From: a virus
Lineage: Duplodnaviria; Caudoviricetes
Length of the DNA: 50,025 bases
Direction: 5' to 3' (one strand)
Virus record (IMG/VR): IMGVR_UViG_3300031716_000014
Coordinates: 1 to 50,025 of that record
Positions within the stretch are counted from its first letter, which is position 1. Each line of letters opens with the position of its first letter. The notes below the pieces were generated by a model. That model was not told the origin of the DNA. It saw nothing but the letters and a program-made list of their open reading frames with translations, and searched no databases. Of the stretch, positions 9,403-49,422 are shown in pieces. Position numbers and translations under genes: made by a program.

Positions 9403-10638
9403 ATGACGAACACCAACGACGTCAACGCTCAGTTCGACGGCGAGAAGATCGCTCAGCTTGCCGCACAGGCCGCCAAGATCGAGCGCGCGGCCGAACGGCT
9501 CGCGATGTTCCGCCAGAAGGAAGCGAACGGCGACGTCAAGATCACCGAGCAGGGGAACGGCACCTTCGCCGTGACCATGCTCACCGGATGGGACCGGGGG
9601 GAGACGTTCACCGTTCGCACGAACGGGACGGTGCTCATGAACCACGGTCTCGACCTGAAGGAGAACGGCGACGCCGCTCTGTACCTCATGAGCGACGGTC
9701 CGGCGTGGCATGGTCTCGGGACCGTGGTCCCTGAGGGTCTGGCGACCGGCGCGGAAGTCCTTCGCGCTGCCGGGCTCGACTGGACCGTTGAGCAGACGGC
9801 CGCGACCTTCACCGGTCCGGACGGCAAGACTCGCGAGGTTCCCGACACCTTCGTCAACTACCGTTCCGACACCTTCGAGCCTCTCGGCTCGGTCGGCAAG
9901 ATCTACTACCCGTTCCAGAACCTCACGGCGTACTCGATCTTGGATGAGCTTCTCGGTTACGGGATGATCGCCAAGAGCGCCGGTTCGTTCCGGTCCGGCA
10001 AGAAGGTCTTCGTCTCGGCTGAGGTCCCCACCGATCTCGTGATCGACCCGACCGGGGTCGCCGACCCCGTCTCGCAGTACGTGATCATCACGAACACGCA
10101 CGACGGGAACGGGTCCTTGATCGCGAACATCAGTGAGTGGTACCCGCGCTGTGCGAACACTCACCGGCTCGCGCTGAAGAACGCGACCTCGACGTACAAG
10201 ATCCGCCACACCAAGGGGGGTCTGAACAAGATCGAGGAAGCCCGGAAGGTGCTCGGTCTGGCTCACGAGTATCACGCCGAGTTCGTCGCCGAAGAGACCG
10301 CGCTTGCTCAGGTGGCCTTCGACGCGAACGACCTCGACGACCTGATCTTGCAGGTCTGGGGAGAGCCCGACGCCGACTCGAAGCGTGGCGTCACGCTCGC
10401 CGCGAACCGGCGGGACAAGGTTCATGAGGTCTGGGCCGTCGAGCTGGGTCGGCTCGGGGCAACGGCCTTCGCCGCAGAGAACGCGGTGACCGGCTACCTC
10501 GACCACATGAGCGAGCTTCGCCCGCGCGGTGACCTGAAGGGGAACCGGCTCGCGGCGCTCGGTCAGACCCTTCTCGAAGACACCACGACCGAGAAGAAGT
10601 CGGCCGCTCACGCGGTTCTCATGAACCGGGTCCGCTGA
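9403..10638 (+). CDS. DUF932 family (phage/plasmid-like TIGR03299) protein
   Basis: PAWHGLG, AGLDWTV, LGSVGKIYYPFQN, NTHDGNGS, RCANT, IRHT motifs. Confidence 0.85.
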   Translation: MTNTNDVNAQFDGEKIAQLAAQAAKIERAAERLAMFRQKEANGDVKITEQGNGTFAVTMLTGWDRGETFTVRTNGTVLMNHGLDLKENGDAALYLMSDGPAWHGLGTVVPEGLATGAEVLRAAGLDWTVEQTAATFTGPDGKTREVPDTFVNYRSDTFEPLGSVGKIYYPFQNLTAYSILDELLGYGMIAKSAGSFRSGKKVFVSAEVPTDLVIDPTGVADPVSQYVIITNTHDGNGSLIANISEWYPRCANTHRLALKNATSTYKIRHTKGGLNKIEEARKVLGLAHEYHAEFVAEETALAQVAFDANDLDDLILQVWGEPDADSKRGVTLAANRRDKVHEVWAVELGRLGATAFAAENAVTGYLDHMSELRPRGDLKGNRLAALGQTLLEDTTTEKKSAAHAVLMNRVR

Positions 10639-10644
10639 TCGATC

Positions 10645-10683
10645 GAAAAAGCCCCCGCCGGTGATCCGGACGGGGGCTTTTTC
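10645..10683 (+). terminator. Intrinsic terminator
   Basis: gaaaaagcccccgccgg-tgat-ccggacgggggctttttc. Confidence 0.85.
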
Positions 10684-10694
10684 ATGCCCTGGCT

Positions 10695-10850
10695 CTGTAC
10701 GGCCCTGAGAGCCACGCTGAGCGCCTCGACCCCCCTCTCGGGTGTCATCTATCCGGGGAAGGCGTGACAGGCCGTCAGCGTGCATCTCAGAGCCCCCAAT
10801 CTGGCACTGAAGCCCGAACAAACGCCGGGCTGAGTACATGAGCCCTTCAG
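10695..10850 (+). repeat. Dispersed intergenic repeat, copy B
   Basis: ctgtacggccctgagagccacgctgagcgcctcgacccc...ctatccgg...aaacgccgggctgagtacatgagccc. Confidence 0.85.
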
Positions 10851-11944: not shown

Positions 11945-12466
11945 ATGGCCAGCTTCACCACCGCGACCGAGCGTCAGATCTCCTTCCTCGACTCCCTGAT
12001 CACCGAGCGCGGGCTGACGCTGGACAAGGCCGTCATGCTCACCTTCGACACCGACGCGACCGAGACCTTCGAGATCGGCCGCCGCGAGTGCTCCCAGATG
12101 ATCGACGCCGTCAAGGCCGTCCGTCGTCCCGAGCGCGAGCGCACCGTTCCGGCCGCCGGGCTCGAAGCCGGGATGTACAAGATCGGTCAGGACATCTTCC
12201 GCGTCAAGATCTCGGGTGCCGGTCGGCCGTACGCGAACGCGCTCATGACCGAGAACATCCTGAACGGCAACTACGCCGACGCTGCCGTCTGGTTCGAGTA
12301 CGCGCCGGGTGCGATCTACCGGATCAAGCCTGAGCACCGGATGACCGTCGAAGAGTGCGCCGCGTTCGGTGTCCTGTACGGCACGTGCTGTGTCTGCGCT
12401 CGCACCCTGACCGACCCGAAGAGCGTCGCGAAGGGGATCGGGCCGGTCTGCGAGAAGCGCGTGTGA
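11945..12466 (+). CDS. DUF6011-domain protein
   Basis: C-terminal CCVCARTLTDPKSVAKGIGPVC signature; N-terminal ATERQISFL. Confidence 0.8.
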   Translation: MASFTTATERQISFLDSLITERGLTLDKAVMLTFDTDATETFEIGRRECSQMIDAVKAVRRPERERTVPAAGLEAGMYKIGQDIFRVKISGAGRPYANALMTENILNGNYADAAVWFEYAPGAIYRIKPEHRMTVEECAAFGVLYGTCCVCARTLTDPKSVAKGIGPVCEKRV

Positions 12467-12482
12467 CCCCGAGTCCTAGACT

Positions 12483-12516
12483 GAAGCCCCCGCCGGATCA
12501 CCGGTCGGGGGCTTCT
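12483..12516 (+). terminator. Intrinsic terminator
   Basis: gaagcccccgccgg..ccggtcgggggcttc. Confidence 0.7.
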
Positions 12517-12535
12517 CTCGTTCGGAGGTACGGAC

Positions 12536-12880
12536 ATGGCCCAACTCGACGGCGCGGTACCGCTGGTACCGGAACCGGCCGTACCGGGTACCGGTGCGAT
12601 CGACCTCGACGCGACGGTACGCGAGTACGTCGGTCACGCGGTACTGAAGTACCGGCTCGGGGAAACGTACTGGTACTCGGTCGCCGGTACGGTGATCAAC
12701 GCTCCCACGGGACCGAGCCCGGCGTTCGTGGTGACCATGTACGCGCGTTCCCCGGTACTCGGCTCGGTACTGGTCGAGGGTGCCGTTCAGACCGGCTTCC
12801 CGACCGCGACCGAGTTCGACGCGATCGTGTCCAGCCTGATCGAGTCGCTTCGCAAGCAAGCCCGCGCGGCTCTGAGATGA
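12536..12880 (+). CDS. Hypothetical protein encoded by GTAC-dense DNA
   Basis: RBS ggagg; about 15 GTAC in 12528-12772 by hand count. Confidence 0.6.
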   Translation: MAQLDGAVPLVPEPAVPGTGAIDLDATVREYVGHAVLKYRLGETYWYSVAGTVINAPTGPSPAFVVTMYARSPVLGSVLVEGAVQTGFPTATEFDAIVSSLIESLRKQARAALR

Positions 12881-12898
12881 ACTGAGCCGGACATACGA

Positions 12899-12933
12899 AG
12901 AGCCCCCGCCGGTGTGTACCGGACGGGGGCTCT
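12899..12933. terminator. Bidirectional terminator between convergent genes
   Basis: agagcccccgccgg..ccggacgggggctct. Confidence 0.7.
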
Positions 12934-12951
12934 GTCGTCTCAGCGTGGCTC

Positions 12952-13221
12952 TCAGGCCGTCAGGCCGTACGGCGAGCCAGGATCGTTCCGGGGGTCTTCC
13001 TCGACGTCGAGCCGGTCGGCGCACTTGGCGCACATGATCCCCTTCTCGTAGATCTCGCATCCCGCGCGGTAACCCCACTGCCACGCTGGGAGCGCCGCGA
13101 CGATCACGAGAAACCAGAAGCCGGACACGGCACCGATCACGAGCATGCCGAGTGCCAGCAACGCCCAGAAGATCGGGCTCTCGTTCGTGGCCCTGAGCGC
13201 GCCCTGAAGTTCCTTGTACAT
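12952..13221 (-). CDS. Small two-TM membrane protein
   Basis: RBS gaaggga, MYKELQG start; own promoter at 13282. Confidence 0.6.
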   Translation of the reverse strand: MYKELQGALRATNESPIFWALLALGMLVIGAVSGFWFLVIVAALPAWQWGYRAGCEIYEKGIMCAKCADRLDVEEDPRNDPGSPYGLTA

Positions 13222-13253
13222 GATCCGTTTCCCTTCGTTGACTGCCTGAGTCC

Positions 13254-13282
13254 ATGGTGATTCGGGCGTGACCACTTGTCAA
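13254..13282 (-). promoter_or_regulatory. Promoter with TTGAC-N5-GTCAC operator
   Basis: Minus strand TTGACA agtggtcacgcccgaat CACCAT. Confidence 0.65.
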
Positions 13283-13372
13283 CTTAGCCCAGTACTAGAC
13301 TTCGCGATCTTTCGCCCGCGCGTATGTGATCAGGGGCGACGTCTTAGCCTTAGCCCTTAGCCTTCGTTTCGG

Positions 13373-14125
13373 TCAGCCCCACCACTCGGAAAAAAGGGTC
13401 ACAAAATGGGCCACCGGATGCCAGATCATGACCCCGATCGAGAAGGCGATTCCGGCGCACATCAGGGGGACGATCAAGACCTTCTCGATCTTCCCGCCTG
13501 CCTTGATCTTGGCGAGCCGGTACGTCCGTTTCGAGAACGGCCAGAAGATCCGAAGTCCCATCCGAGTGATCATGTCGCCGATCATGTGGACCACGCATCC
13601 GGCCATGATCGCGACGGGGATCAACTGGAGATTGATCGTCGAGAAGCACACGACGGAGATCACGAACGGGAAGGGTGCAAGATCATCCAACCATGATCGC
13701 CGGAACCACGACCCGACCCGTCCGGGTACCGCGCGGAACAACCGGAGGAACGCCGCGAGTACCAAGATCAGTACCGCACAAAGGATCACCCGAGCGAGTA
13801 CCTGTACCGCAGTCAGCGCCACGCCTTCGAGCGGTACCGGGTAGCCGTCCCGTACCGCGACGGCACCGGCGAGCACGGTACCGAGTGCCAGTACCCCCGG
13901 TACCGAGTGCGTGATCTGCCGGTGTCCCACGAGCTTCGAGAACCCTCGCGTCACCGGTCCGTACGTTCGGGACACGGTACTTTTCGCGTGGTCCACGTCC
14001 GGTAGCAGGGACGATCCCGGTACCACCATGCCGAGTACCACAAGGGACGCGACGTCGAGGTTCAGGTACGCACCGGCGAGCGTAACGGCGAGTACTCCGC
14101 TGATTGCATGTGACCGACCCATCAT
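13373..14125 (-). CDS. YdjM-family (LexA-binding, inner-membrane) metal-dependent hydrolase
   Basis: MMGRSH, LLPDVDH, GHRQITHS, HMIGDMIT..G..FWP motifs; RBS aggagg. Confidence 0.88.
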   Translation of the reverse strand: MMGRSHAISGVLAVTLAGAYLNLDVASLVVLGMVVPGSSLLPDVDHAKSTVSRTYGPVTRGFSKLVGHRQITHSVPGVLALGTVLAGAVAVRDGYPVPLEGVALTAVQVLARVILCAVLILVLAAFLRLFRAVPGRVGSWFRRSWLDDLAPFPFVISVVCFSTINLQLIPVAIMAGCVVHMIGDMITRMGLRIFWPFSKRTYRLAKIKAGGKIEKVLIVPLMCAGIAFSIGVMIWHPVAHFVTLFSEWWG

Positions 14126-14148
14126 CGGTACCACCTCCTGAACTGAGC

Positions 14149-14177
14149 TTGACATAGAGTCACGAGTAACGCACACT
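14149..14177 (+). promoter_or_regulatory. Promoter/operator of the spd-tra-like operon (leaderless)
   Basis: TTGACA tagagtcacgagtaacg CACACT, 6 nt before ATG 14184. Confidence 0.65.
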
Positions 14178-14183
14178 CGATCT

Positions 14184-14501
14184 ATGGCAAAGGAAATCGC
14201 GCGCAGAAGCCGGGACGTACCGGCCACTCGTACCGGCGACGTTGACCCGGACGGGTACGCCGGTATGCCTATCGTCATCGCTGAAGATCCGGAATGGCTG
14301 ACGTTCATGGCACCGGAGACCGCACCGTTCGGTACCTGGGTACAGGGCTGGTACCGGTACGCGATCATTCCGGTACGTGGTCTCGGCTACGTCATGCGCC
14401 GTACCGGTGACGTGATCTTGCGCGTCACCATGTACTGGTACGCGACTCTCGGGATCATCCTCAGCGTGATCACGCTGATCATCATCTGGGTAACACGCTA
14501 A
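14184..14501 (+). CDS. Small membrane protein (Spd-like position)
   Basis: C-terminal TM helix; first gene of the operon containing the TraB-like gene. Confidence 0.6.
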   Translation: MAKEIARRSRDVPATRTGDVDPDGYAGMPIVIAEDPEWLTFMAPETAPFGTWVQGWYRYAIIPVRGLGYVMRRTGDVILRVTMYWYATLGIILSVITLIIIWVTR

Positions 14502-14521
14502 GTCCCTGGAAGGACACGATC

Positions 14522-15688
14522 ATGAAACTGTTCACCCGTACCGCGTCGGTCCCAGAGCCGACCGAGACCGTCAAGCCGAAGACGGCCGCCCAACTGGCGA
14601 AGGAAGCCGAGATCGCTCGCGACCAGGCGATCAAGGACGCTCAGGCGAAGGCCGAACTCGACCGGATCAACCGAGCCGCTTCGTTCGAGCGCGAGACCGA
14701 AGAGCGTGAGCGTGCCCGCGTCCGGCAGGCTGAAGAGCTGAAGGACAAGGCGACCAAGCGCAAGATCGACACGACCGAGTTCCGCGCGTTCGCGAACAAG
14801 GCCGTCCCGTACGCGCCCCTGTTCCTGGTGAACGTCGCCGCGATCACCGGTCAGATTGGTTGGGCTCTCGATCATCTGGAGATCGGCGACGCCGGGACCG
14901 TGCTCCGCTGGTTCGCGTCGATCATGTTCGGTGTCACTGCCGAGTCGATCGCCCTGTTCCTTCAGTACTACGCGAACCGGGCTCTGTTGAACCGGGACAG
15001 TGCGGCTTCGCTCTACCTCGCGGCCTTCCTGGTCGCCGGGCTGGTCGCGGCCGTCAACTTCTCGCACTGGTCGAACCCGGCTGACGGCGAGTTCTTCGGC
15101 AAGGTCAACGCGACGGCCGTGATCTTCGCGCTGTGCTCGTTCGCGTCCCCGTGGCTCTGGAGAATCCACAACCGGGCTGAGTACCGCGAAGCGCTTCGGT
15201 CGGCCGGTGAGATCGACTCGCGCGCCGTCAAGCTCAGCGTCAGCCGGAAGATCCTTTACCCGATCCGTTCGTTCCAGGTGATCCGGCTCGCCGCGTGGCA
15301 GGGTGAGACGAACCCGACGAAGGCCGTCGAGATGTACGAGACGCGCCGGATCGCGAAGGCCACCGTCAAGGCGAGCGAGAAGGCTCTTCGGGACGCTGAG
15401 AAGGCTCAGGGCAAGACCACGAAGGAAGTCGAGGCACCGGCACCGGCCGAGACCCCGAAGCCCGCCACCGTGGCGCACAGCAACGGGAACGGCACGCTCA
15501 ACGGCCGCCGCGACATGTCGAACCACACGAAGTGGAACGACGGTCTCGCGACCTACGCCGCTTCGGTGGACTCGGGTTCGCCCCTGAACACCCGTGAGCT
15601 TGCCGCCGCACTCGGACAGAAGAACAAGGTTCTCGCGTCCGCGATCATCCGTCACTACAAGACCGCTCAGGGGGTCAACGGATCATGA
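14522..15688 (+). CDS. DUF2637/SpdA-SpdB2-like protein: coiled coil + 4 TM + C-terminal HTH
   Basis: Charged N-terminal coiled coil, four hydrophobic helices (AAVNFSHW), Pro/Ala linker, LNTRELAAALGQKNKVLASAII HTH-like end. Confidence 0.65.
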   Translation: MKLFTRTASVPEPTETVKPKTAAQLAKEAEIARDQAIKDAQAKAELDRINRAASFERETEERERARVRQAEELKDKATKRKIDTTEFRAFANKAVPYAPLFLVNVAAITGQIGWALDHLEIGDAGTVLRWFASIMFGVTAESIALFLQYYANRALLNRDSAASLYLAAFLVAGLVAAVNFSHWSNPADGEFFGKVNATAVIFALCSFASPWLWRIHNRAEYREALRSAGEIDSRAVKLSVSRKILYPIRSFQVIRLAAWQGETNPTKAVEMYETRRIAKATVKASEKALRDAEKAQGKTTKEVEAPAPAETPKPATVAHSNGNGTLNGRRDMSNHTKWNDGLATYAASVDSGSPLNTRELAAALGQKNKVLASAIIRHYKTAQGVNGS

Positions 15689-17580
15689 CAGCATCGGTCC
15701 GGCGGTTGTACCTGAACCCGCCGAAGTACCGATCATCTAAGAAGGGTGCCGGGTCCTCAGACGGGCTCGGCACCTTCCTTAATGATCACAGAGAAGAGAT
15801 CGCGCCGTACGTGCTCGCCTGGTTCTACTGGCTCGCGACGGCGCTTGTCGGCCGCGACCCCCTTCGGGTCGCCTGGTTCGTCAGCGTGTCGGCGCTGTGC
15901 TCGGTAATGATCTACTTCTTCGGCTACAAGTTCCGCGCGCTCCGTCAGTTCACGGCGAAGGGCAAGAACGGCCGGTCGAGGAAGCAGAAGATCAGGCTCG
16001 CGTACGTGCTCGCCGCGCCGTTCGTGCTCGCCGCATGGGCGACATGGGCGACATGGCCGAACGCCGCGAGCGACGGTCTTCCGCACCGGCCGACCCTTTG
16101 GGATTCGGTCGTGTTGATCCTGGTAACGCTGGTCGCTGCCGGACCATGGCTCTTCGAGCTGAGATCGAAGCGGAAGGTCGTACTCACGCTCGACGGTCTG
16201 AGCCGCGAAGAGCACGACACGGCTCGCCGGGACGCACGGACGTTGATCAACGGTTGGGTCGGCTGGACCGGCCGATCCGGCTTGACCGGCGCGCGACTGA
16301 AGGGGCTCACCTTCTCGCGCTGGTCACGTTGTATCGAGCTGGAAATGCGACACGGCTCGACGACGCTCAACTTCACCGCGCTTCGGATGAACAAGATCGA
16401 GACGGCTTCGCTCTGGACGATCGCCCCCGGCATGGCTCGGGTCGATCGCTCGGAGACCGACGCGCGCCGGTTGACGATCCGGTACATGCTCGCCGATCCG
16501 CACGCCGAGACCATGCCCCCGCCGGACTTCGACGAGATGGACGACAAGATGATCTCGCTCGGGGTCTTCGAGAACGCCATGACCGTCTGGTTCGAGTGGG
16601 TCAACACGCTGGTTGCCGGACTCACCCGAGCCGGGAAGTCGGCTCTCGTGAACACCTTGATCCGCGCGTTCGCGAAGATCCCTCACGTCGCGATCGTCGG
16701 TATCGACCTGAAGCCGGGTGCTCCCGAACTCGGACCGTGGCGCGACGTCTTCGCGGCGCTCGCCGACAGTCCCGAGAAGACTCACGCGCTACTCGATCAG
16801 ATCTTGATCGGGCTTCAGCGTCGCGGCGATCTCATGCTTCAGCGTGGTTGGCGAAACTGGCGAGTGACGGTCAAGGAACCGTTCCTCGTTCTGATCGTTG
16901 ACGAGATCCAGCGACTCGACCGGAAGGCTCGGGACAAGGTCGCGGACATCGCGGCGATCATCGGCGCGTACGGCGGGATCGTGGTGATCGCGACTCAGTA
17001 TCCGGTGAAGGAGAACCTTCCTTCCAAGATCAAGCAAAACCTGAGCCAGCGAATCGGGTTCCGTACGGCGGACGCCGTCGCCGACCGAGTGATCTTCGGG
17101 GACTCGGCGACGCGTACCGGCTGGAAGCCTTCGGAGCTTTGCCCTGAAGGTCGTCCCGGTTCGTTCTTGATCAGGAACGGGACGCACGTCCGGCCGGTGC
17201 TCGCTCGCGGCTGGTTCAACGACGAAGCCGAAGTGATCAGGGAAGCCGACGTTCTGAGTCGTCACCGGACCGAGATCGACCGCGCCACCTGGAACGGCGA
17301 TCTTGAGTCGGCGATCATGGATGCCGAGTTGGTCGAGCACGATTCGCGACCAGCGATCGAGTCCGTGAAGACGACTCGTGATCAAGTTCTCGAAGCGATC
17401 GAGATCGGGCACGGGACCCCGAAGGCCGTCAGTGCCTATACCGAGATCCCGTACTCGACCGTGAAATTGATCATCAGTCAGCTTGCCGAAGCCGGGCAGA
17501 TCGAGCATGACGGACCGCGCTCGCCATGGCGGCCGACCGCGTTCGACCCGGACGACGGCGAGCCGGACCCGATAGACTGA
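15685..17580 (+). CDS. FtsK/SpoIIIE-family DNA translocase, TraB-like (actinomycete conjugation)
   Basis: N-terminal TMs, Walker A GLTRAGKS, IDLKPG, Walker B LVLIVDE, ATQYP, RIGFR, C-terminal winged-HTH (TPKAVSAYTEIPYSTVKLIISQLAEAGQI). Confidence 0.85.
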   Translation: MTASVRRLYLNPPKYRSSKKGAGSSDGLGTFLNDHREEIAPYVLAWFYWLATALVGRDPLRVAWFVSVSALCSVMIYFFGYKFRALRQFTAKGKNGRSRKQKIRLAYVLAAPFVLAAWATWATWPNAASDGLPHRPTLWDSVVLILVTLVAAGPWLFELRSKRKVVLTLDGLSREEHDTARRDARTLINGWVGWTGRSGLTGARLKGLTFSRWSRCIELEMRHGSTTLNFTALRMNKIETASLWTIAPGMARVDRSETDARRLTIRYMLADPHAETMPPPDFDEMDDKMISLGVFENAMTVWFEWVNTLVAGLTRAGKSALVNTLIRAFAKIPHVAIVGIDLKPGAPELGPWRDVFAALADSPEKTHALLDQILIGLQRRGDLMLQRGWRNWRVTVKEPFLVLIVDEIQRLDRKARDKVADIAAIIGAYGGIVVIATQYPVKENLPSKIKQNLSQRIGFRTADAVADRVIFGDSATRTGWKPSELCPEGRPGSFLIRNGTHVRPVLARGWFNDEAEVIREADVLSRHRTEIDRATWNGDLESAIMDAELVEHDSRPAIESVKTTRDQVLEAIEIGHGTPKAVSAYTEIPYSTVKLIISQLAEAGQIEHDGPRSPWRPTAFDPDDGEPDPID

Positions 17581-17620
17581 GCAGTGATCGGAACCGGACT
17601 CGCGGCCGGTATCCAAGATC

Positions 17621-17659
17621 GGAGAGCCCCCGGACGACCACGGTCGCCGGGGGTTTTTC
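17621..17659 (+). terminator. Intrinsic terminator
   Basis: gagagcccccggacgacc..ggtcgccgggggtttttc. Confidence 0.7.
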
Positions 17660-17685
17660 GTGTCTTCGTGACTCTCCGTCGATAT

Positions 17686-17845
17686 GCCCCTGTACGGCCC
17701 TGAGAGCCACGCTGAGCGCCTCGACCCCCTTCCCGGTACTCGCTATCCGGGTACCCCGAGTTCGTCGTTTCCCCTGGTCATCAGGGCTTCGCTTCGGGCC
17801 GTCGAGGCTCATTAAACGCCGGGCTGAATACATGCGCCCCTGAGG
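17686..17845 (+). repeat. Dispersed intergenic repeat, copy C
   Basis: cccctgtacggccctgagagccacgctgagcgcctcgacccc...ctatccgg...ttcgtcgtttcccctggtcatcaggg...aaacgccgggctgaatacatg. Confidence 0.88.
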
Positions 17846-17864
17846 GTGTCACGCGCCGTATCGC

Positions 17865-17893
17865 TTGACCGGGTGTCACTCGGATGAGAGAAT
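17865..17893 (+). promoter_or_regulatory. Promoter with TTGAC-N5-GTCAC operator
   Basis: TTGACC-17bp-GAGAAT. Confidence 0.7.
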
Positions 17894-17931
17894 CAGGTCA
17901 TGCCCCAAGAACACGGAGGGATACCAGGATC

Positions 17932-18837
17932 ATGAAACAGGCGTACATCGAAAAGCGGTTCAACCGGTCGAGCGTCGAGATCATCGCGATTGCCGAAACG
18001 ATCTGTCAGGAGTACGCACGTCGGGGACTGAGCCTGACCCTTCGTCAGCTCTACTACCAGTTCGTAGCCCGTGGCTATATCGACAACCGGCAGACCGAGT
18101 ACAAGCGGATCGGGTCGATCGTCGCTGACGCGCGGCTCGCCGGGTTGATCGACTGGGACCACATCGAAGACCGGACCCGGTTCCTTCGTGGGGTGACCAC
18201 GTGGACAAGCCCGAACCAGATCTTGCGCGCCGTCGCCGGTCAGTTCCAGACGAACCGTTGGCGGAACCAAGATCAGCATGTCGAAGTGTGGATCGAGAAG
18301 GATGCTCTCGTGGGAGTGATCCAAAACCCGTGCTCACGCTGGCACGTCGATTACTTCGCATGCCGGGGGTACGCGAGCGCGAGCGAGGTCCGGTCGGCCG
18401 GTGTCCGCTTCGTCCATCACGAGAGCATGGGCCGACACACGACCGTGATCCATCTCGGCGACCACGACCCGTCAGGGCTCGACATGACCCGCGACCTCGA
18501 AGACCGGCTTCGGCTCTTCGGCTCGCGTGTGGACGTCCACCGGATCGCGCTCAACATGAACCAGGTCGAGCAGTACACACCCCCGCCGAACCCGGCGAAG
18601 ATGACCGACTCGCGAGCGAACGATTACGTCGATCTCTACGGCTTCGAGAGCTGGGAACTCGACGCGCTCGACCCCACGGTCATTCAGGATCTTGTCGAGG
18701 GGGAGATCTTGGCTCGCCTCGACATGAACGAGTGGAACAGGGTCACGGCCGAAGACCTCGCGGTTCGGGAGACGCTGAAGCGGCTCGCGGACAACTGGGA
18801 CGACGTCCGGGACCACGTCGAAGAAACCTACGAGTAG
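17932..18837 (+). CDS. TopoVI-A/Spo11-like wHTH + TOPRIM protein
   Basis: TLRQLYYQ, EVWIEKDAL, GYAS, HLGDHDPSG, RIALN, ELDAL motifs. Confidence 0.8.
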   Translation: MKQAYIEKRFNRSSVEIIAIAETICQEYARRGLSLTLRQLYYQFVARGYIDNRQTEYKRIGSIVADARLAGLIDWDHIEDRTRFLRGVTTWTSPNQILRAVAGQFQTNRWRNQDQHVEVWIEKDALVGVIQNPCSRWHVDYFACRGYASASEVRSAGVRFVHHESMGRHTTVIHLGDHDPSGLDMTRDLEDRLRLFGSRVDVHRIALNMNQVEQYTPPPNPAKMTDSRANDYVDLYGFESWELDALDPTVIQDLVEGEILARLDMNEWNRVTAEDLAVRETLKRLADNWDDVRDHVEETYE

Positions 18838-22123: not shown

Positions 22124-22566
22124 AGATCACCTTCTTCGTCTCGGAACCGGCTGACAAGATCGACTCGCCGAAGCCATGTGCCCCCGGCGAAGACCAGCAC
22201 CGGCCACGCCGGAAGGACGCCCGACCAACCCCCAATCATGATCAAGGCCACACCGTAGACCAGCGCCGCGAGCGAGGACAGGTACAAGCCAAAGATCAAA
22301 ATTGGCATTCGGGTCACGACCATGTGACCGTTGTTTTCCTTGATCGACGATAGTCCGATCAGCCACAACAGGCACCCGAAGAACAGGCAGATCGACCAGA
22401 CCAGCCGACCCCAACCGGGAAGGAACTCGGACAAGGCTCGGGACTGGACCACGCCGACGACGGCGAGCGTCGCGCCGGGGATGCCGAGAACACAGAACGT
22501 CGCGTCGAGCGGTGCCGTCCGAATCCATATCGGAAGCCGTCTAACGATCCGGTCCTGAACACCCAT
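22120..22566 (-). CDS. Four-TM membrane protein
   Basis: Hydrophobic helices; operon packing. Confidence 0.65.
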   Translation of the reverse strand: MGVQDRIVRRLPIWIRTAPLDATFCVLGIPGATLAVVGVVQSRALSEFLPGWGRLVWSICLFFGCLLWLIGLSSIKENNGHMVVTRMPILIFGLYLSSLAALVYGVALIMIGGWSGVLPAWPVLVFAGGTWLRRVDLVSRFRDEEGDL

Positions 22567-23240
22567 CAAAGATCCCATTCGTACGTGAGCCGCTTTAGCT
22601 GTGCGTACGCTTCAGCGCGTTGATCAGGAGTCATGTTACGAGAGTGTGAGTCCGGATGCGTCCGGTAGCGGAAGCCGGGTCGCCGAGTGCCGACGATCTT
22701 CGCCGAGAGATGCGCGAAGCCGACCCAGAACGCCGAGTCGATCCAGTCGTTCGCCTCGATCCACGGACGGCGCTCCCAGAACGACCGGCGGAACGCGGCA
22801 CACGAGAAGCACACCGACATGCCCATGAGAGCGCGCTCTGTCGAAGCCCACCGGTGCAAGATCGATTGCCCATCCTTGACCGCGCCGATCGAGACCACGT
22901 CGGCGCGGTGTGCTTCGTTGGCCACGTCGGCGAGCGCGTACGGAAACAGCATGTCGTCCGCGTCGAGATGCATGATCCATTCGGTCTCGGTCGCCTCGAC
23001 GGCAGCGTTGCGAGCCCGACCCATCCCCGCGTACTCGATCTTCTTCCAGCGCCACGGGATCGGGCAGCGCGCGAGCCTGAGCCGTGCGGCCGTCGAGTCG
23101 GTTATGCCCGCGTCAATGATCGTGATCTGAGCCGGTCTCAACGTCTGAGTCTCGACGCTCTCGATCCACTCGGGGAGGTATCGGCCGTAGTCGCCCCATG
23201 CCGACGTCACGACCCCGATGTTGAAACCGGCCACGTTCAC
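22566..23240 (-). CDS. Glycosyltransferase family 2
   Basis: YLPEWIESV..Q, IIDAG, GMGRARN, LDADD, YRTH..S. Confidence 0.88.
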   Translation of the reverse strand: MNVAGFNIGVVTSAWGDYGRYLPEWIESVETQTLRPAQITIIDAGITDSTAARLRLARCPIPWRWKKIEYAGMGRARNAAVEATETEWIMHLDADDMLFPYALADVANEAHRADVVSIGAVKDGQSILHRWASTERALMGMSVCFSCAAFRRSFWERRPWIEANDWIDSAFWVGFAHLSAKIVGTRRPGFRYRTHPDSHSRNMTPDQRAEAYAQLKRLTYEWDL

Positions 23241-24259
23241 AACCTTCCGAGCGCGTACATCTTCCGGTCGTACCGCTTGTCGTAGCCCGGCGTGAGAGCC
23301 ACGATGATTCCCCCTAGGGAGTTGACCGCGTCATGCATCGCGAACGTCTCAGCGTGCGCTACAGCGCCGGGAAGACGCTCCCTAGCGTCGGCGAGTTCGA
23401 CGAACGTCAGCCTCGACGACGTGACGGCCGCCGCGAGCATCTCGCGCCACCACGGAACGTGATGTAGCACGCTGAGTAGAAGCGTGACGTCGTACCCCGA
23501 GAGCCGGTCGAGGTCGTCTCGGCTGAAGCGCTGCCGGATGAACTCGACCCTCCCGTTCTCGGTCGTGACCACCTGTTCGGGAAGCCCCCGGTAGTCGTCA
23601 ACGGCCGTACACACCGCGCCGAACTCTTCGGCGAGCCGGACCGAGAAGTACCCTTCGTACGCGCCGACGTCGAGCACCCGGAATCCGGTCTTCGGGAAGA
23701 CCTCGCGCCGGATCGCTTCGTACCGTCCGGCACAGTCGCGCTGTCCGGGACGTACCTCGCGGCCGTCCTTCCATTGCGCCTGGTAACCCATGGGCATAAC
23801 CCCCCACTGATTCATGATCGAGGTTCTGTCGGTCGATCCCCACCACGCCGGGATGTGGCGAGCGTGGATCGTCGGCACCGGCACCCGAGAGACGTCGGGA
23901 CCCCAGAGATCGTATGAGTACTCGGCTGGTTGCTCGATCGCCGTTTCCCAGTCGATCAAGAGCGGTACGCCGTGCTTGCCCTTGACCACGTTCCGAAGAT
24001 GGACGTCCCGATGATGGATGCCTTCTGCATGTAGCGCGCTGAGTAGCTCGCGAAGAGCGTCGGCCGGTCTCCAGTGCGGGAAGGCCGTACCGGCGTGCCG
24101 AGTCTCGATCGTCAGCTTCAGCCCGTCGAAGTCGAGAAGCCGGGGGGTCGCCCACGGAACCCGCCGGTACCATTCCGCTTCGGCCGCCGCGAGTGACGGG
24201 ATCTTGTACGTCTTGGTCGTGTGGTCCGGCAACACCGCGACCCGAGCCCGATCGCCCAT
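23237..24259 (-). CDS. Kinase-like (Kdo/RIO/APH fold) domain fused to class I SAM methyltransferase
   Basis: HHRDVHLRN and LIDWE in the N-half; VLDVGAYEGYFS and LLSVLHH in the C-half; one reading frame. Confidence 0.8.
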   Translation of the reverse strand: MGDRARVAVLPDHTTKTYKIPSLAAAEAEWYRRVPWATPRLLDFDGLKLTIETRHAGTAFPHWRPADALRELLSALHAEGIHHRDVHLRNVVKGKHGVPLLIDWETAIEQPAEYSYDLWGPDVSRVPVPTIHARHIPAWWGSTDRTSIMNQWGVMPMGYQAQWKDGREVRPGQRDCAGRYEAIRREVFPKTGFRVLDVGAYEGYFSVRLAEEFGAVCTAVDDYRGLPEQVVTTENGRVEFIRQRFSRDDLDRLSGYDVTLLLSVLHHVPWWREMLAAAVTSSRLTFVELADARERLPGAVAHAETFAMHDAVNSLGGIIVALTPGYDKRYDRKMYALGRL

Positions 24260-24264
24260 GTCCG

Positions 24265-32125: not shown

Positions 32126-32761
32126 TCAACTCCTGACCTTCACGCGCTGACGCTCGTACGGGTACAGCAGCTTGCCGACCTTCGGGATATCCCGGACCCG
32201 GACCGCGCCGAACTCGGACCAACCGGCCACGCCGAAGGGGGCTTCCCGCATCTTGAACGTCTCGGCCGCAAGCATGAGCTGAGCCTGTTTCACGTCCGCC
32301 GGGACAGCCGCCCATCCGAAATGCGCCGTGACCCGAAGCGACGCGACGTACCCGAGCACAGGGAACCTGAGCGCGTTGATCGCCCTGATCTTGAAGTACG
32401 GCCAACCGGTGTTACCGTCCCGGATGCCGTTCAGGGGTTCGAGCTGGTAGTCACTCGCCGTCCATGCTTCGGTGTACGTGCCGTCGCCGTTCGGGTCGGT
32501 GTCGATCTCAAGATCGGTGATCGTGTGGACGTCGTCGATCTCGGCAAGCCACGAGTACCGGCACGCGTACACGCGGGTCTGTGTACCGGTACTCGTGATC
32601 ACATTGTCGCGGTTGAACTGACGGGAACAGTGGTTGTTGATCTCTCGCGTCGAGCTTTCGAGCACGTCGTCAAGATCAGCGTCGTAGTCCGTGATCGAGC
32701 TGTCGATCTTGAGATATGACTTCAGCTCAGCTCTCGTCACGTACGGGTCGAGGAAGGCCAC
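32126..32761 (-). CDS. Head-to-tail adaptor (gp6/gp15-like)
   Basis: YVTRAELKSYL, INNHCSRQF, GWAAVPADVKQA, LLYPY. Confidence 0.8.
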   Translation of the reverse strand: MAFLDPYVTRAELKSYLKIDSSITDYDADLDDVLESSTREINNHCSRQFNRDNVITSTGTQTRVYACRYSWLAEIDDVHTITDLEIDTDPNGDGTYTEAWTASDYQLEPLNGIRDGNTGWPYFKIRAINALRFPVLGYVASLRVTAHFGWAAVPADVKQAQLMLAAETFKMREAPFGVAGWSEFGAVRVRDIPKVGKLLYPYERQRVKVRS

Positions 32762-33506
32762 CCGGATCAACCCCTTCCCGCGTGAGCCCGTTCGAGGTCA
32801 GGTACAGCTCTTCGTCGAGGTAGACGAGTCCCTTGTGATGGGTCGTGCGAACGGCCGTGTTGACGTGCATCGGTACCCCGAGTTCGGCGAGCCGGATACA
32901 GAACGAAAGATCTTCGCTGTAGAAGCCTTCGCCGTCTTCGGTACGAACCCGCGTGAACCAGTCGGTACCGAACTTCTCGCGTACCGCGTCGAGTACCGAT
33001 CGGTGTACCAGGATCGCGGCCGTACCGGTCGCGTCCACCGGTACCACGGCATCGATCGGGTACCGGGGGTACGGCGTGAAGCCGGTCATCCCGTCCGGGT
33101 TCTTCTGGTACATGGTCGGGTGAACGTGGTACGTGTCCGCGTACATCCCGAGTACCGGACCCCGGCGAGCCGCGAAGCACAGAGCGCCGACGACGGGCCG
33201 ATCTTCCTTGTGAGCCGACGTGACGAGATCATCGACGATCTCGCGCGAGAATCCCATGTCGGTGTCCACAAAGAACAACCACTCGCCGTCAGTGGTGTCT
33301 AGAAAGGCCCTGACGACGTCGTTACGGCTGTCTGGGAGGTTCCCTGAGGTACAGAGACTCCGAAGCTCTCTACCGCCGTTACGGACGATCCTACGGCTCT
33401 TCATGAGGTCGAAGAGAGTGAGGTCCCGATACGAGAGACCGAAGCACGCGGACCATGATCCGTTATCCAGGTAGCCGACGACCACCGACCCCGCCGTGAT
33501 CTTCAC
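32727..33506 (-). CDS. Glycosyltransferase (GT-A fold)
   Basis: SRNDVVRAFL, WLFFVDTDMGF, TGTAAILVHR, SEDLSFC.R. Confidence 0.8.
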   Translation of the reverse strand: MKITAGSVVVGYLDNGSWSACFGLSYRDLTLFDLMKSRRIVRNGGRELRSLCTSGNLPDSRNDVVRAFLDTTDGEWLFFVDTDMGFSREIVDDLVTSAHKEDRPVVGALCFAARRGPVLGMYADTYHVHPTMYQKNPDGMTGFTPYPRYPIDAVVPVDATGTAAILVHRSVLDAVREKFGTDWFTRVRTEDGEGFYSEDLSFCIRLAELGVPMHVNTAVRTTHHKGLVYLDEELYLTSNGLTREGVDPGGLPRPVRDES

Positions 33507-33784: not shown

Positions 33785-33862
33785 GATCTCCCCAGGGATG
33801 GGACGGTACCGGCGTGGTACCGGGGGTACGTCGCTGCGGATTCCGTACCCCCGGTACCGGTA

Positions 33863-36127
33863 CTAGCTGATGTTCGCGAGGAACCGGAACGCGTTCTGAA
33901 CCAGAACCTTCGAGTTGTTCCGCCAGAAGGCGTACAGCCCGCGAGTTCCGTTCGGAAGGTTGTTCGCCGTCGCGAACAGGTGAGGAACCAGCTCGACGGA
34001 CATCCCGACCCGATCGACGATCAGGAGTTGCGAGAAGTCGCCGAACACCAAGAGCCGGTCGTTCGTTCCGGCCGTCGTGGTGGTCATCGCCGACGCTTCG
34101 TACGCCGGGTAGCCGATCAGCTCAGGGGGCAAACCCTGACCGAGCCGAACCCACAGGTCCCCGCCGTCGCTCGCGGAACCGAGCTGACGAACGCGGTTGT
34201 AGATCGACCGGTTCGCGAGCCACGAAGCCCGCGTACGCCACCGGGGAGCAAGATCCTCTTCCACGGCGTAGATGTCGGCCGACGTGAACGAACCGCCACC
34301 GTCAACCTGACACGTCGCGTAGTCGAGCGAGCCGGGAACGCCACCGGGGTTGTTGCCGGTGCCGTCGCCCGTGATGAACGACGTACCCTCTTCGGTCGCC
34401 TTCGCGTCCGCGAGCATGGTCGTCATCTCGGACCGCATCGAAGCCCAGTCCTGATCGAGTTCGATCGAGAACGGGACGAAGCCCTGAACCTTGACGGTCC
34501 GGACGGTCGGCTGTGCGAAGGTCGGGCCGTCGTTGCTGACTTCGGCCGCTTCGTTGTCACGCGAGACCGTGATACCGGCCGACGTGAGACCCTGCCATTC
34601 CTTACCGACGATCTGAACGACTCGCGCGAGCGAACGAAGCGGGTTGATCACTCCGTCGCTGGTCAGGATCACGCTCGGGTCGAGCATGAACGGAACCGCG
34701 TAGCCACCGGCCGTGTCGGTACCGAGCGAGAGGTTCGCGCGCTCTTCGCTGGTAAGGCCGTTGGTGTTCATCGCGAGCACGGCCTTACCGAACGCACGCT
34801 CATAGACCGGCGAGCCGGTCGCGAGAACGCGGCGCGCGAGGGTGCCGGTCGAGTCGTCGATCGAGTCGAGAAGCCGCGCGACCTGAGCCTGAGCCGCTTC
34901 GCGATCCTTGACGCCGGGGTACTTGCCGATCTCGACGGCACGCATCGCGTGATCCCGGTAGAGCCCTCCGAGATCGTCGAAGGACCGAGCGAGATTCCGG
35001 ATCTCGGTCAGGTCATAGATGTTCTTCGCCGTCCGGGCACCCATGACCGGCCGTGCGAAGTCGGCCGGACGCTCGACGCGACCGGGCTCGTTCGCCAGAC
35101 GTGCGAGACGCTCGCGGCGCTGGTTCGCGTCCGTGATCGCGCGCTCGTGAAGGTCGTACTCTTCGTCGAGCGTGGTCCACTCGGACCGGATGTCGTCGGG
35201 AAGTTCGGAACCGGCGTACTCGCCGTCGATCTCTGCGAGCCGTGCGCGGATCTCAGCCTGTCGCGCGGCACGCTCTTCGACCGTCATGTTCACGGTCTTG
35301 TCCCTTCGTTGTGTGTTGGGCTGAGTAGGAAGCTCAGCGCGAACAGGTTCCGAAGTGGGATCGGGTCCCGGCGACGGTTCTACCGAAGGTGAGACGGGCT
35401 CGACGTCCGGTTCAGGGCGATCATACGTCCTGTCACGGTTCTTCTGTCCAGCCTGGTTCTTCTCCAGTTCGGCACGTAGCGCCGCGATCTCTTCGGGGGT
35501 AAGCCGGTCGAGCATGGTCCGCACGCCGACGCTGGTCTGTTCGTATGCCGGGAAGACGACCGGTCCAGCCTCGAACAGCTTGACTTCCTTGATCGTCCTC
35601 ATGATCTTCGCCGGGTCGTCGTTCTCCCACAGTGCATCCCAGAGATCGGGACCGGCCTTGATCACCTTGTCGGTTTCGACGTCCCGCCACTCTTCCCGAA
35701 GGATCTCGAAGCGGAAGGACATGCCCGTGATCGCGTTGCCCTCGATCGCCTGACGGATCGGCTCGACGACCGGGTTGTCAAAGAGCCGGGCTCGGACGGC
35801 AAGGCCGGTCTCGTCTTCGCTCAGGGACTCGAAGGCACCGATCGGGACCGATCCGGTTCGCTGGTCGCGACCGTGATCGAACTGGAGAACCGGCGTGCGC
35901 TCTCGAAGCGTCTTCCGGAAGGCACCCTTCGCGATCGTCTCTGTGAACGCGCCTTCCCATGAGTTGATCTCGGTCGGTGCGTCGAAGACGGCCGCGTACC
36001 CTTCGAGGGTCCGGCCGTCCATCTCGTCAGGGTCCATCGGCATCTTCGCCGGGTCCATGGGCATCTTCGCCGCGCGGAAGTCAACCGCACGGGAGACAAG
36101 ACGCGGGGGCTGACGTCGGTCGGTCAT
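33863..36127 (-). CDS. Prohead protease - HK97-fold major capsid protein in one ORF
   Basis: LEGYAAVFD..E.IAKGAF..FDHG..GMSFRF..E.GPVVFPAY (protease); GGYAVP, EGTSFITGDG, LIGYP, FGDFS (capsid). Confidence 0.9.
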   Translation of the reverse strand: MTDRRQPPRLVSRAVDFRAAKMPMDPAKMPMDPDEMDGRTLEGYAAVFDAPTEINSWEGAFTETIAKGAFRKTLRERTPVLQFDHGRDQRTGSVPIGAFESLSEDETGLAVRARLFDNPVVEPIRQAIEGNAITGMSFRFEILREEWRDVETDKVIKAGPDLWDALWENDDPAKIMRTIKEVKLFEAGPVVFPAYEQTSVGVRTMLDRLTPEEIAALRAELEKNQAGQKNRDRTYDRPEPDVEPVSPSVEPSPGPDPTSEPVRAELPTQPNTQRRDKTVNMTVEERAARQAEIRARLAEIDGEYAGSELPDDIRSEWTTLDEEYDLHERAITDANQRRERLARLANEPGRVERPADFARPVMGARTAKNIYDLTEIRNLARSFDDLGGLYRDHAMRAVEIGKYPGVKDREAAQAQVARLLDSIDDSTGTLARRVLATGSPVYERAFGKAVLAMNTNGLTSEERANLSLGTDTAGGYAVPFMLDPSVILTSDGVINPLRSLARVVQIVGKEWQGLTSAGITVSRDNEAAEVSNDGPTFAQPTVRTVKVQGFVPFSIELDQDWASMRSEMTTMLADAKATEEGTSFITGDGTGNNPGGVPGSLDYATCQVDGGGSFTSADIYAVEEDLAPRWRTRASWLANRSIYNRVRQLGSASDGGDLWVRLGQGLPPELIGYPAYEASAMTTTTAGTNDRLLVFGDFSQLLIVDRVGMSVELVPHLFATANNLPNGTRGLYAFWRNNSKVLVQNAFRFLANIS

Positions 36128-43076: not shown

Positions 43077-43361
43077 ATGAGCGCACGCAAGATGACCAAC
43101 AGAGAGTTCGGTACGCGCGTCGGGTGTGACCCGTCGTTCGCGTCGTACCTTCGGTCGGGCAAGCGGATGCCGGGGACCGATCTCTTCATTGAGATCATCC
43201 TTGCGTTCGAGCTGGACCCGATCGAAGCCATGGACGCGTACCGCGAGGGAACCGAAGGGTTCAGCGCGTATCTCCGTCGTACCGTGTTCGAGGTCGAGGT
43301 ACCGGAAGGTACCGATACCGAGCGCGGTACCGAGAACGCCGGTACTGATCAGGTAGGGTGA
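43077..43361 (+). CDS. XRE-family HTH repressor candidate
   Basis: MTNREFGTRVGCDPSFASYLRSGKRMPG; only plus-strand gene in this arm. Confidence 0.8.
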   Translation: MSARKMTNREFGTRVGCDPSFASYLRSGKRMPGTDLFIEIILAFELDPIEAMDAYREGTEGFSAYLRRTVFEVEVPEGTDTERGTENAGTDQVG

Positions 43362-43394
43362 CGTACGCCGAACCCCGCCATGTCCGGCACACAA

Positions 43395-43690: not shown

Positions 43691-43895
43691 GTGCGGTACC
43701 TCCTTCCGGTACGTCCGGTTCCGCGATCAGGTACCGCATGGTACGGGTCTGTTCGAGCCTGGTACCGGCCGGAAGCCGTTCCCATGGGATCGACCGGCCG
43801 ACCAGATCGAGTACGTCGCGTTCGAGCCGTACCTGAGTCGTGTCGTCCGGTACGTCGAGTACCAGCGTCACGCGTACACCCTTCCGGACGCTCAT
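43662..43895 (-). CDS. Hypothetical protein (GTAC-dense)
   Basis: ATGA overlap with upstream gene. Confidence 0.5.
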   Translation of the reverse strand: MSVRKGVRVTLVLDVPDDTTQVRLERDVLDLVGRSIPWERLPAGTRLEQTRTMRYLIAEPDVPEGGTAHGTTIDPVA

Positions 43896-49328: not shown

Positions 49329-49422
49329 GAATGATCTTCCTCTCTGAGTGCGTAGCTATGACTATACGTCATGGTGAACCGGTCGGCGAGTCCCCGAGTT
49401 CCACAGTCAGGGCAACGCCGGT

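Follow-up and report, generated by a model that had tools for sequence, protein, structure and literature searches.

Genes of a predicted translocation module and its replicon

We analyzed a 50,025-base contig, the whole of IMG/VR record IMGVR_UViG_3300031716_000014 (the window; G+C content about 63%), in which the palindrome GTAC is gathered into dense islands beside the genes of a predicted DNA translocation module. In order, the module comprises a minus-strand YdjM-like gene, an intergenic stretch that resembles a promoter, a small open reading frame (ORF), a gene for a 388-residue SpdB2-like membrane protein, and a gene for a 631-residue TraB/FtsK-like translocase (the pump). Islands 1 and 2 bracket and enter this module; island 2 ends 1.2 kb and island 1 begins 3.2 kb upstream of the pump gene (Table 1). 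A sequence-only reading of this DNA had drawn its parallels from Streptomyces plasmids. Because genes for a tape-measure protein, a fused capsid-protease, a portal, and a large terminase lie on one 50-kb contig, the replicon is, by its gene content, a tailed phage genome and not a plasmid; a plasmid or an integrative conjugative element as the carrier of the pump was ruled out by the same gene set. The window also encodes an endolysin-like protein, HNH endonucleases, and, for replication, a family-A DNA polymerase, a helicase, an exonuclease, and a prim-pol. At about 50% identity, its portal resembles the portals of Rhodococcus and Gordonia phages, and no integrase was found among the approximately 50 ORFs scanned, a subset of the window ORFs.

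Table 1. Positions of the GTAC islands and of the module genes in the window (aa, amino acids; HTH, helix-turn-helix)
Feature	Position	Strand	GTAC sites	Remarks
GTAC island 1	12528..12770		15 (starts 12528-12767)	243 bp; within the 5' two thirds of ORF 12536-12880
GTAC island 2	13726..14441		28 (starts 13726-14438)	716 bp; 5' half of YdjM-like gene (-), divergent intergenic region, ORF 14184-14501
Conserved hypothetical protein gene, 114 aa	12536..12880	+		bears island 1; no Pfam or PHROG family
YdjM-like membrane protein gene	13373..14125	-		Pfam PF04307, 7.6e-26
Promoter-like stretch with TTGACA	14139..14165	.		divergent intergenic region between YdjM-like gene and pump operon; near-identical in L044
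Small ORF, 105 aa, hydrophobic C-terminus	14184..14501	+		first gene of pump operon; bears part of island 2
SpdB2-like/divergent DUF2637 membrane protein gene, 388 aa	14522..15688	+		candidate array reader (predicted)
TraB/FtsK-like DNA translocase gene, 631 aa	15685..17580	+		start overlaps preceding stop by 4 bases
Distant GTAC island	32741..33155		16	inside glycosyltransferase-like gene 32727-33506 (-), head-tail region
Distant GTAC island	33806..33935		7	sites mostly in an intergenic inverted repeat directly after the capsid-protease gene
Distant GTAC island	43238..43366		7	3' end of small HTH gene 43077-43361 (+)
Distant GTAC island	43696..43877		10	probably inside ORF 43662-43895 (-), whose start overlaps the preceding gene's stop

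Related loci were obtained by alignment-based pattern scans (L043 to L048, L141, and L142; L047 is 99% identical to L048, and the two were counted as one), and single-protein scans with the pump and YdjM sequences gave no match in viral and genome contigs. The product of ORF 12536-12880 had 11 database matches, one of which was its own product (99%), with the other 10 showing 54 to 93% identity and conserved blocks; 40 columns are invariant among the matches. The YdjM-like gene adjoins the module in every related locus that reaches far enough, with tblastn matches in L044, L046, L048, L141, and L142, and the small ORF 14184-14501 has positional counterparts in L044, L048, and L142, the first of which encodes a protein of 46% identity. 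Given the YdjM Pfam match, the 10 homologues of the 12536-12880 product, and the L044 counterpart of 14184-14501, the three genes beneath islands 1 and 2 are, on this comparative evidence, real and unrelated, which bears out the sequence-only reading that the islands run through three unrelated genes on both strands.

The 388-residue protein was predicted by AlphaFold (45 homologues; mean predicted local distance difference test score, pLDDT, of 71) to form helices at residues 22-118, 127-156, 161-183, and 197-220, and we infer its membrane insertion from hydrophobicity. In the model, a linker at residues 299-337 (pLDDT below 50) leads to a C-terminal three-helix domain at residues 338-382 (pLDDT 85-92), for which the sole local fold match was the LexA DNA-binding domain (probability 0.94, E 0.87, 58 columns). 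A fold search with the whole model returned no PDB match at E ≤ 0.001, and a wider search was filled by coiled coils and barely probed the C-terminal domain. Against the DUF2637 profile the protein scored 13.8 bits, below the cut-off of 22.8, which is passed by its positional counterpart in L048 (29 bits) and by seven of the 10 upstream proteins scanned; we read it as a divergent DUF2637 member. An HTH motif, LGxKN(K/R), is widespread in its 45 aligned homologues (35 to 83% identity), among which only G352 and N368 are invariant. Roughly 70 homologues of the protein were identified, and in a subgroup of homologues the recognition helix is altered (NGNRHHA).

The pump contains a predicted FtsK_SpoIIIE ATPase core (PF01580, 1e-9, residues 306-479) that also matched FtsK chains in PDB (E 2e-4), and its P-loop residues G317, K318, and S319 are invariant in 11 homologues. 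At its C-terminus, residues 581-614 gave a weak DUF742 match (E 0.0077), and HTH_5, HTH_IclR, and HTH_20 are precomputed on homologues of 36 to 42% identity. Domain matches, homologue annotations, and the model are thus all consistent with the earlier statement that both proteins carry C-terminal HTH-type domains. Compared with the TraB-like loci of five named Streptomyces genomes, the pump is 28 to 31% identical over the ATPase core, and two Kitasatospora loci match over short segments only; the upstream gene arrangement is the same in all four Streptomyces-type loci examined. The pump gene is followed by a gene for a 317-residue protein (17884-18837; phrog_6247 'DNA topoisomerase', 1.6e-116; no Pfam family and no PDB sequence match), and a gene of this type also follows the pump gene in L043 to L045, and not in L048 or L142 within the sequence compared.

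Several small features lie between these genes. Two alike G+C-rich hairpins, at 12485-12515 and 12900-12932, both contain AGCCCCCGCCGG and flank ORF 12536-12880, which therefore appears to be a self-contained cassette. At 13343-13364, just past the 3' end of the YdjM-like gene, CTTAGC(C) is repeated 3 to 3.5 times in a small tandem array. An 18-base direct repeat, TGAACTGAGC(T/C)(T/G)GACATA, is found at 14139-14156 (the TTGACA copy, near-identical in L044) and at 12878-12895, and is a possible promoter or operator. A promoter and terminator scan of 12300-14700 returned no sites, and 14139..14165 holds no full sigma-70 match.

Selection on the DNA of the GTAC islands

Over the whole window, 358 GTAC sites were counted, with 102.5 ± 10.1 expected and a maximum of 142 in 100 dinucleotide-preserving shuffles. 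The density is 61.7 sites per kb in island 1 and about 39 per kb in island 2, versus 5.8 per kb outside all islands (263 sites in 45,328 bp), and the earlier hand counts of about 15 and 28 sites proved exact. An unbiased scan of all 6-mers identified CGGTAC as the most clustered of the window. The flanks of the 43 sites in islands 1 and 2 are strongly patterned: 11 sites are full GGTACC, 26 have the G/C on one side only, six have neither, and the commonest outer dinucleotide is CG (31 of 86 half-flanks). The enrichment of GGTACC that had been noted by eye was confirmed (42 copies in the window versus 7.3 ± 2.7 expected), with 24 of the 42 falling within the 1.9 kb of islands; for CGGTACC, 32 copies were counted in the 1.9 kb of islands versus 14 in the remaining 48 kb. 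The preferred form of the word is (C)GGTACC(G).

The effect of coding constraint was assessed in 56 ORFs using 1000 within-gene synonymous shuffles and 1000 resamplings from genome codon usage, with the protein held fixed in both. The three genes beneath the islands carry 14 (12536-12880), 17 (13373-14125), and 11 (14184-14501) GTAC sites, compared with 8.8, 7.0, and 5.8 under within-gene shuffling and 4.7, 3.1, and 4.3 under codon-usage resampling, and the observed number exceeded all 1000 draws of both nulls for each gene. Six of the 56 ORFs exceeded every codon-usage resampling and kept their excess under both nulls; among the other 50, three stood at p = 0.002-0.009. Since most of these 50 ORFs fit the codon-usage null, the background of about 6 GTAC per kb is essentially codon usage. 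The rare valine codon GTA accounts for 7 of 15, 12 of 36, and 4 of 10 valine codons in the three genes in the same order, and its forced use had been noticed earlier. In the six island ORFs together it supplies 38 of 103 valines, a share some fivefold that of the genome as a whole (74 of 979 when all 56 ORFs are pooled). GTAC occurs in all three reading frames of each of the three genes, and sites lie in genes of both strands and in intergenic DNA.

Other properties of the islands are unremarkable. Tandem Repeats Finder detected no tandem array inside islands 1 and 2, the spacing of sites has no helical periodicity (only a mild excess of multiples of three), and CGGTAC versus GTACCG shows no orientation bias in any island, both half-site orientations being mixed. 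Tandem or peptide repeats as the cause of the window islands were ruled out by the repeat finder and the three-frame spread, and base composition or imported DNA by the ordinary G+C content of the islands and the codon nulls. RNA folding of island 1 gave a z score of -2.58, with 3 of 200 shuffles folding equally well, and that of part of island 2 a z score of -1.14, which is not significant; the signal is weak, and it is expected because GTAC words are self-complementary. Selection acts on the DNA itself at the islands, since the excess survives the codon-preserving nulls, employs rare GTA codons, and extends over all three frames. The sequence-only reading had proposed such selection, and a disappearance of the excess under codon-preserving shuffling, named beforehand as the outcome that would speak against it, did not occur.

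Beyond islands 1 and 2, four further strong islands lie at 32.7-33.9 and 43.2-43.9 kb (Table 1), and two weak ones of 5 sites each were also found. The genes of the distant islands also fail the codon nulls, and the flanks of these sites share the G/C preference of islands 1 and 2. The glycosyltransferase-like gene 32727-33506 (phrog_34859 glycosyltransferase match, 1.2e-19) has 17 GTAC sites versus 6.2 expected, and the small HTH gene 43077-43361 has 8 versus 2.8 expected (Pfam HTH_3 E = 0.0057, below the cut-off). In ORF 43662-43895, 6 of 10 valine codons are GTA. The island at 33806..33935 contains an inverted repeat, identified by eye, with the arms GGTACCGGGGGTACG and CGTACCCCCGGTACC, which resembles a hairpin terminator.

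Some further features of the replicon were recorded. Three glycosyltransferase-type genes lie in or beside the structural genes (22566-24286; 32727-33506), one of them preceded by a kinase-methyltransferase fusion, and two of the three are GTAC-enriched; their position among structural genes suggests virion glycosylation. A single 754-residue gene at 33863-36127 combines the domains of a prohead protease and a major capsid protein, an arrangement also described for cluster CF phages of Rhodococcus (PMC13313380). A prim-pol/helicase-type gene of about 800 or more residues runs past the left end of the window (2-2395, minus strand) and has a probable continuation at 49594-50022 (minus strand); the contig is therefore probably circular or a permuted assembly. 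Between the polymerase gene and the prim-pol 3' part, CCCC and AAACCC words cluster at 49390-49470 (5 AAACCC within 300 bp), which could be an origin or packaging-related repeat. Runs of 14 metagenome studies (soil, rhizosphere, and manure) contain the stretch 12000-18000, which indicates a common lineage; there was no RNA run among the listed sequencing runs that carry this stretch. A blastn search with the same stretch gave no plasmid match, and its phage matches were only short (DUF6011).

GTAC arrays in related loci and their candidate reader

Pump homologues of 45 to 87% identity exist in metagenome assemblies, and the gene order of the module is conserved across the related loci. Each locus was divided into the module region (YdjM-like gene to nucleotide 400 of the pump gene) and the remainder, and GTAC was enriched in the former in all four loci tested by count: 2.1-fold in the window (p 7e-5), 2.5-fold in L044 (p 2e-5), 2.6-fold in L048 (p 4e-6), and 1.8-fold in L142 (p 0.03). 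The pumps of the relatives are 61, 42, and 32% identical to that of the window. In L141 and L046, small GTAC peaks were located, by position, between the YdjM-like and DUF2637-like genes. CGGTAC also ranks first for clustering in L047 and L048, and it is one of the six most clustered 6-mers of L044 and of L043. In L048 it is the DUF2637 gene and the beginning of the pump gene, and not the YdjM-like gene, that hold the islands. The only genes common to all GTAC-array loci for which DNA was compared are the YdjM-like, DUF2637-like, and TraB-like genes. A second set of relatives, selected by portal (41 IMG/VR loci and REQ1), had islands of at least 6 sites in 3 of 42 loci; these say little because the contigs mostly do not reach the pump module.

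The arrays are kept in relatives as a density more than as fixed positions. Between the window and L044 (68% DNA identity), 14 of the 28 GTAC sites of island 2 are kept in place, compared with 32% for 44 frequent 4-mers pooled, which ranks GTAC third of the 44, and other sites are replaced a few bases away. Synonymous shuffles in the relatives gave 11 sites versus 5.0 for the L044 small ORF, 14 versus 8.8 for the L044 DUF2637-like gene, and 13 versus 6.6 for the L048 DUF2637 gene (0 of 1000 shuffles reached the observed number in each case). Density is thus kept while positions turn over, which is the signature of a binding-site array. Together, these results show that the arrays exist, are selected at the DNA level, and are conserved beside the module. 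The link to tra/spd genes drawn by the sequence-only reading therefore stands in so far as the same word peaks at the module in relatives whose pumps are 32 to 61% identical, and falls short in that strong islands also lie 18 to 30 kb away.

In the lineages of L046-L048 and L142, a second word, TGGCAC/GTGCCA, is clustered within the TraB-like gene and around it (L048:9226-12640; L142:7243-7806 and 10303-10818), with 35 copies in 21 kb of L048 and 30 in 13 kb of L142; the window has 17 in 50 kb, unclustered. This word may form a second array with its own reader.

Two proteins of the module could read the GTAC arrays. The presumed recognition helix of the pump is of the type IPYSTVKLII in the window and of the type IPRPTLYRHLKIL in L046 and L048, and GTAC arrays accompany both types, while the LGxKN(K/R) motif of the membrane-protein HTH is kept in L046 and L048. 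Because the recognition helix differs between lineages that share GTAC arrays, the pump is disfavored as the reader, and these sequence comparisons make the membrane HTH, rather than the winged helix-turn-helix (wHTH) of the pump, the more likely sequence-specific reader; the sequence-only reading had counted the TraB wHTH among its candidates.

More distant TraB-like loci (26 to 34% identity, from Streptomyces genomes and viral contigs) have arrays in a comparable place. The top-clustered 6-mer of a locus of about 20 kb lies in the gene upstream of the pump in 15 of 18 loci (those with upstream DNA; two more are cut off), and this gene is DUF2637 in six of the eight such genes scanned. The word itself is lineage-specific (CGAACA-type, GAGCGC-type, (GGACC)n-like with 37 CGGACC in 300 bp, and others) and, in most of these loci, is spread over two or three frames or present in both orientations, and the TraB wHTH tail is almost invariant across them. 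This pattern, too, favors the membrane HTH as the sequence-specific partner. In Streptomyces-type loci, dense word arrays lie in the C-terminal linker region of the DUF2637 gene (L059:8350-8700, L064:8270-8620, L065:8200-8640, and 12 further loci).

A proposed protein-docking role for the arrays and its alternatives

The sequence-only reading had interpreted the islands as a cis-acting array for an Spd-like HTH protein or the TraB wHTH. Selection on DNA and linkage to the module support that idea in part; its analogy with SpdA and its adjacency of all islands to the module do not stand, and the pump wHTH, one of its two candidates, is disfavored. We propose that the islands are protein-docking arrays of the clt kind that belong to a plasmid-type double-stranded DNA (dsDNA) translocation module of the phage and are read by the candidate membrane HTH, a reading to which we assign a probability of about one half. 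The module would consist of the small membrane ORF, the SpdB2-like DUF2637 membrane protein, and the TraB/FtsK-like pump. Many GTAC cores, preferably in the form (C)GGTACC(G), would be bound by the three-helix HTH encoded by 14522-15688, which would hang from the membrane protein on a flexible linker of about 40 residues. This contact would anchor phage DNA at the membrane, next to the hexameric pump, which would then move the DNA across a septum or into a neighboring cell, or segregate it, and the distant islands would serve as further capture points on the 50-kb genome. We infer protein binding, the identity of the reader, and the role of the pump for the phage from the sequences compared here.

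This proposal resembles known systems in several respects. The clt loci of pSVH1, pJV1, pWTY27, and pIJ101 are described as plasmid-borne and 50 to 175 bp long, with 3 to 9 asymmetric direct repeats of 5 to 9 bp (9 bp in pJV1, 7 bp in pWTY27, and 8 bp in pSVH1), and 16 bp of the pWTY27 clt lie inside traA (PMC3583192). As the sequence-only reading had stated, binding of clustered short clt repeats by TraB is established in these reports, where the locus is bound by the element's own translocation protein, is needed in cis for transfer, and selects the DNA to pump (PMC4447253, PMC3583192). The islands share with clt the clustering of a short word within a few hundred bp, partly in coding DNA. 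Known clt loci adjoin or lie inside an FtsK-like tra gene; islands 1 and 2 belong to the same module as the pump gene, and the four distant islands lie far from it. Unlike clt, they comprise 15 and 28 copies of a palindromic 4-6-bp core over 243 and 716 bp with no orientation bias, are joined by four distant islands, overprint several unrelated genes, belong to a tailed phage, and have as their probable (predicted) reader a membrane HTH protein and not the pump.

The candidate reader is likened to SpdB2 of pSVH1 by architecture, not by sequence (only 13.8 bits on DUF2637). SpdB2 is described as having a coiled coil, four membrane helices, and a C-terminal domain and as binding dsDNA and interacting with TraB; its DNA binding is reported to be non-specific, and homologues are noted on actinophages (PMC4447253). 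The AlphaFold model of the 388-residue protein likewise shows a long helix at the N-terminus, followed by membrane-type helices and a domain at the C-terminus. Its gene directly precedes the pump gene, and the overlap of the two suggests that they are translationally coupled. SpdA proteins have 117 to 163 residues, with a conserved DNA-binding region at the N-terminus, and bind a 12-bp palindrome, sps (CGTCACGTGACG), with 1 to 3 copies in or next to spdA; they are soluble and, in the account given there, affect stability and not transfer (PMC4170104). In the SpdA2-sps pair of pIJ101, as here, a short palindrome is written in coding DNA; there, a plasmid protein binds it, and this was tested by synonymous recoding (PMC4170104). 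In the window, CGTCACGTGACG has no exact copy and two matches with at most 2 mismatches (1709 and 2086) versus 9.9 expected. In view of the absent word and the differing protein (a 388-residue SpdB2/DUF2637-like membrane protein with a C-terminal HTH), we reject an SpdA/sps identity, and the SpdA-type palindrome analogy drawn earlier does not apply.

Several observations weigh against this proposal. Four strong islands lie 18 to 30 kb from the module inside unrelated genes, and the candidate reader's own gene 14522-15688 shows no GTAC excess (5 sites versus 4.9 expected). Conservation is uneven, with weak enrichment in L142 and only moderate conservation of sites in place (50% versus 32%). Strain variants add little, since in contigs of four DNA runs (40 of 72 variant places listed) none of the 10 places within the islands hit a GTAC, with about 1.8 expected, too few for a test. 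The core is a 4-6-bp palindrome with no orientation bias, unlike the 7-9-bp direct repeats of known clt. Among the distant loci, the L058 array is single-frame and looks like a peptide repeat, and a match of array word to HTH in such loci is no proof of recognition because array and HTH are physically linked and co-inherited anyway. Finally, the arrays of every lineage center on the divergent promoter region that separates the pump operon from the YdjM-like gene, a placement that fits a regulatory role too.

The alternatives differ chiefly in the protein that would read the sites. In pSVH1, TraB binds short repeated clt motifs via helix 3 of its C-terminal wHTH (PMC3583192, PMC4447253), and the window pump has a wHTH-like tail with arrays at most about 3 kb from its gene, as in every related locus with upstream DNA; the arrays might thus be classical clt read by the pump itself, with no sequence-specific part for the membrane HTH. 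We consider this unlikely: the recognition helices of the two pump types are strongly different in spite of their shared GTAC arrays, the Streptomyces-type wHTH is near-invariant while the adjoining word changes, and known repeats are asymmetric, of 7 to 9 bp and in 3 to 9 copies, compared with 15 to 28 copies of a palindromic core here. A somewhat smaller chance is given to a regulatory array, in which the sites would be operators for a repressor or spreading silencer that keeps a toxic membrane/pump operon and accessory genes off in the kil-kor style; this protein could be either of two small XRE-type HTH proteins or the membrane HTH itself, controlling its own promoter. This explanation stays alive because every lineage centers its arrays at the divergent promoter; the intergenic stretch itself is conserved, unregulated traB is reported to be toxic in Streptomyces plasmids (PMC4447253), and one distant island lies inside the HTH gene 43077-43361. 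However, 15 to 28 sites over 250 to 700 bp of coding DNA far exceed what operators need, most L048 sites are deep within the DUF2637 and pump genes, distant islands are found within a gene of the late structural region and beyond the capsid gene, and no GntR-type TraR/KorA homologue was found among the approximately 50 ORFs scanned.

Reading by a host factor or a methyltransferase is improbable. The 4-bp palindromic core without orientation bias resembles methylation words, the same word recurs across phage lineages with diverged DNA-binding domains, and the islands are dispersed over the genome, as would be expected if a host protein or a GTAC-specific methyltransferase used the sites for timing, protection, or replication and not for the pump. 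Clustered GATC at oriC and at the phage P1 pac site, which works through Dam methylation with SeqA or a packaging enzyme, is alike in that islands of a 4-bp palindrome stand far above background and are read as a cluster. Here, unlike there, no DNA methyltransferase or such reader was found among the ORFs scanned, the sole methyltransferase domain (23237-24286) being fused to a kinase domain among glycosyltransferases, and in distant lineages this place is taken by other words, which argues for readers encoded by the elements themselves. Least probable of all, and already disfavored, is that the islands lack any function as DNA sites and are a by-product of protein composition, imported DNA, or RNA hairpins. 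Some sites do fall on invariant tyrosine codons of a conserved protein (Y45, Y47, and Y69), island 1 gives some folding signal, and one island is a terminator-like hairpin; against this, the excess and the elevated GTA use persist with the protein sequence fixed, the G+C content is ordinary, the second fold test is not significant, and density is kept in relatives while positions change.

Actinomycete conjugation is the only system known to move unprocessed dsDNA between cells, and DNA selection in it is ascribed to the binding of a small clt locus by TraB. In literature listings and abstracts on GGTACC repeats, FtsK-like translocases of actinobacteriophages, and DUF2637, no such phage arrays are described. 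Here, conjugation-type machinery occurs in a tailed phage together with a much larger array of palindromic words at several loci, which overlies coding DNA and keeps its kind but not its positions in relatives. A bolder version of our proposal, which we hold only tentatively and regard as rather unlikely, is that a widespread soil actinophage lineage took over a Streptomyces-type conjugation apparatus (the TraB pump and the SpdB2-like tether) and marked its own genome with dispersed GTAC arrays, so that the genome could be pumped as naked dsDNA into neighboring cells or hyphal compartments by a second, virion-free route, with the tether and not the pump as the reader. The gene content and arrays described here hint that the phage may pass its own DNA from cell to cell without virions. 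If the membrane HTH protein does dock at these sites, they would provide a testable handle on the role of phage-borne FtsK/TraB and SpdB2 homologues, would point to phage genomes that spread or segregate independently of virions in filamentous hosts, and would be a clear example of strong selection on DNA altering both the codons and the protein sequences of several unrelated genes together; and if the membrane tether is the reader, the one-protein TraB-clt picture of DNA selection in actinomycete conjugation would be revised.

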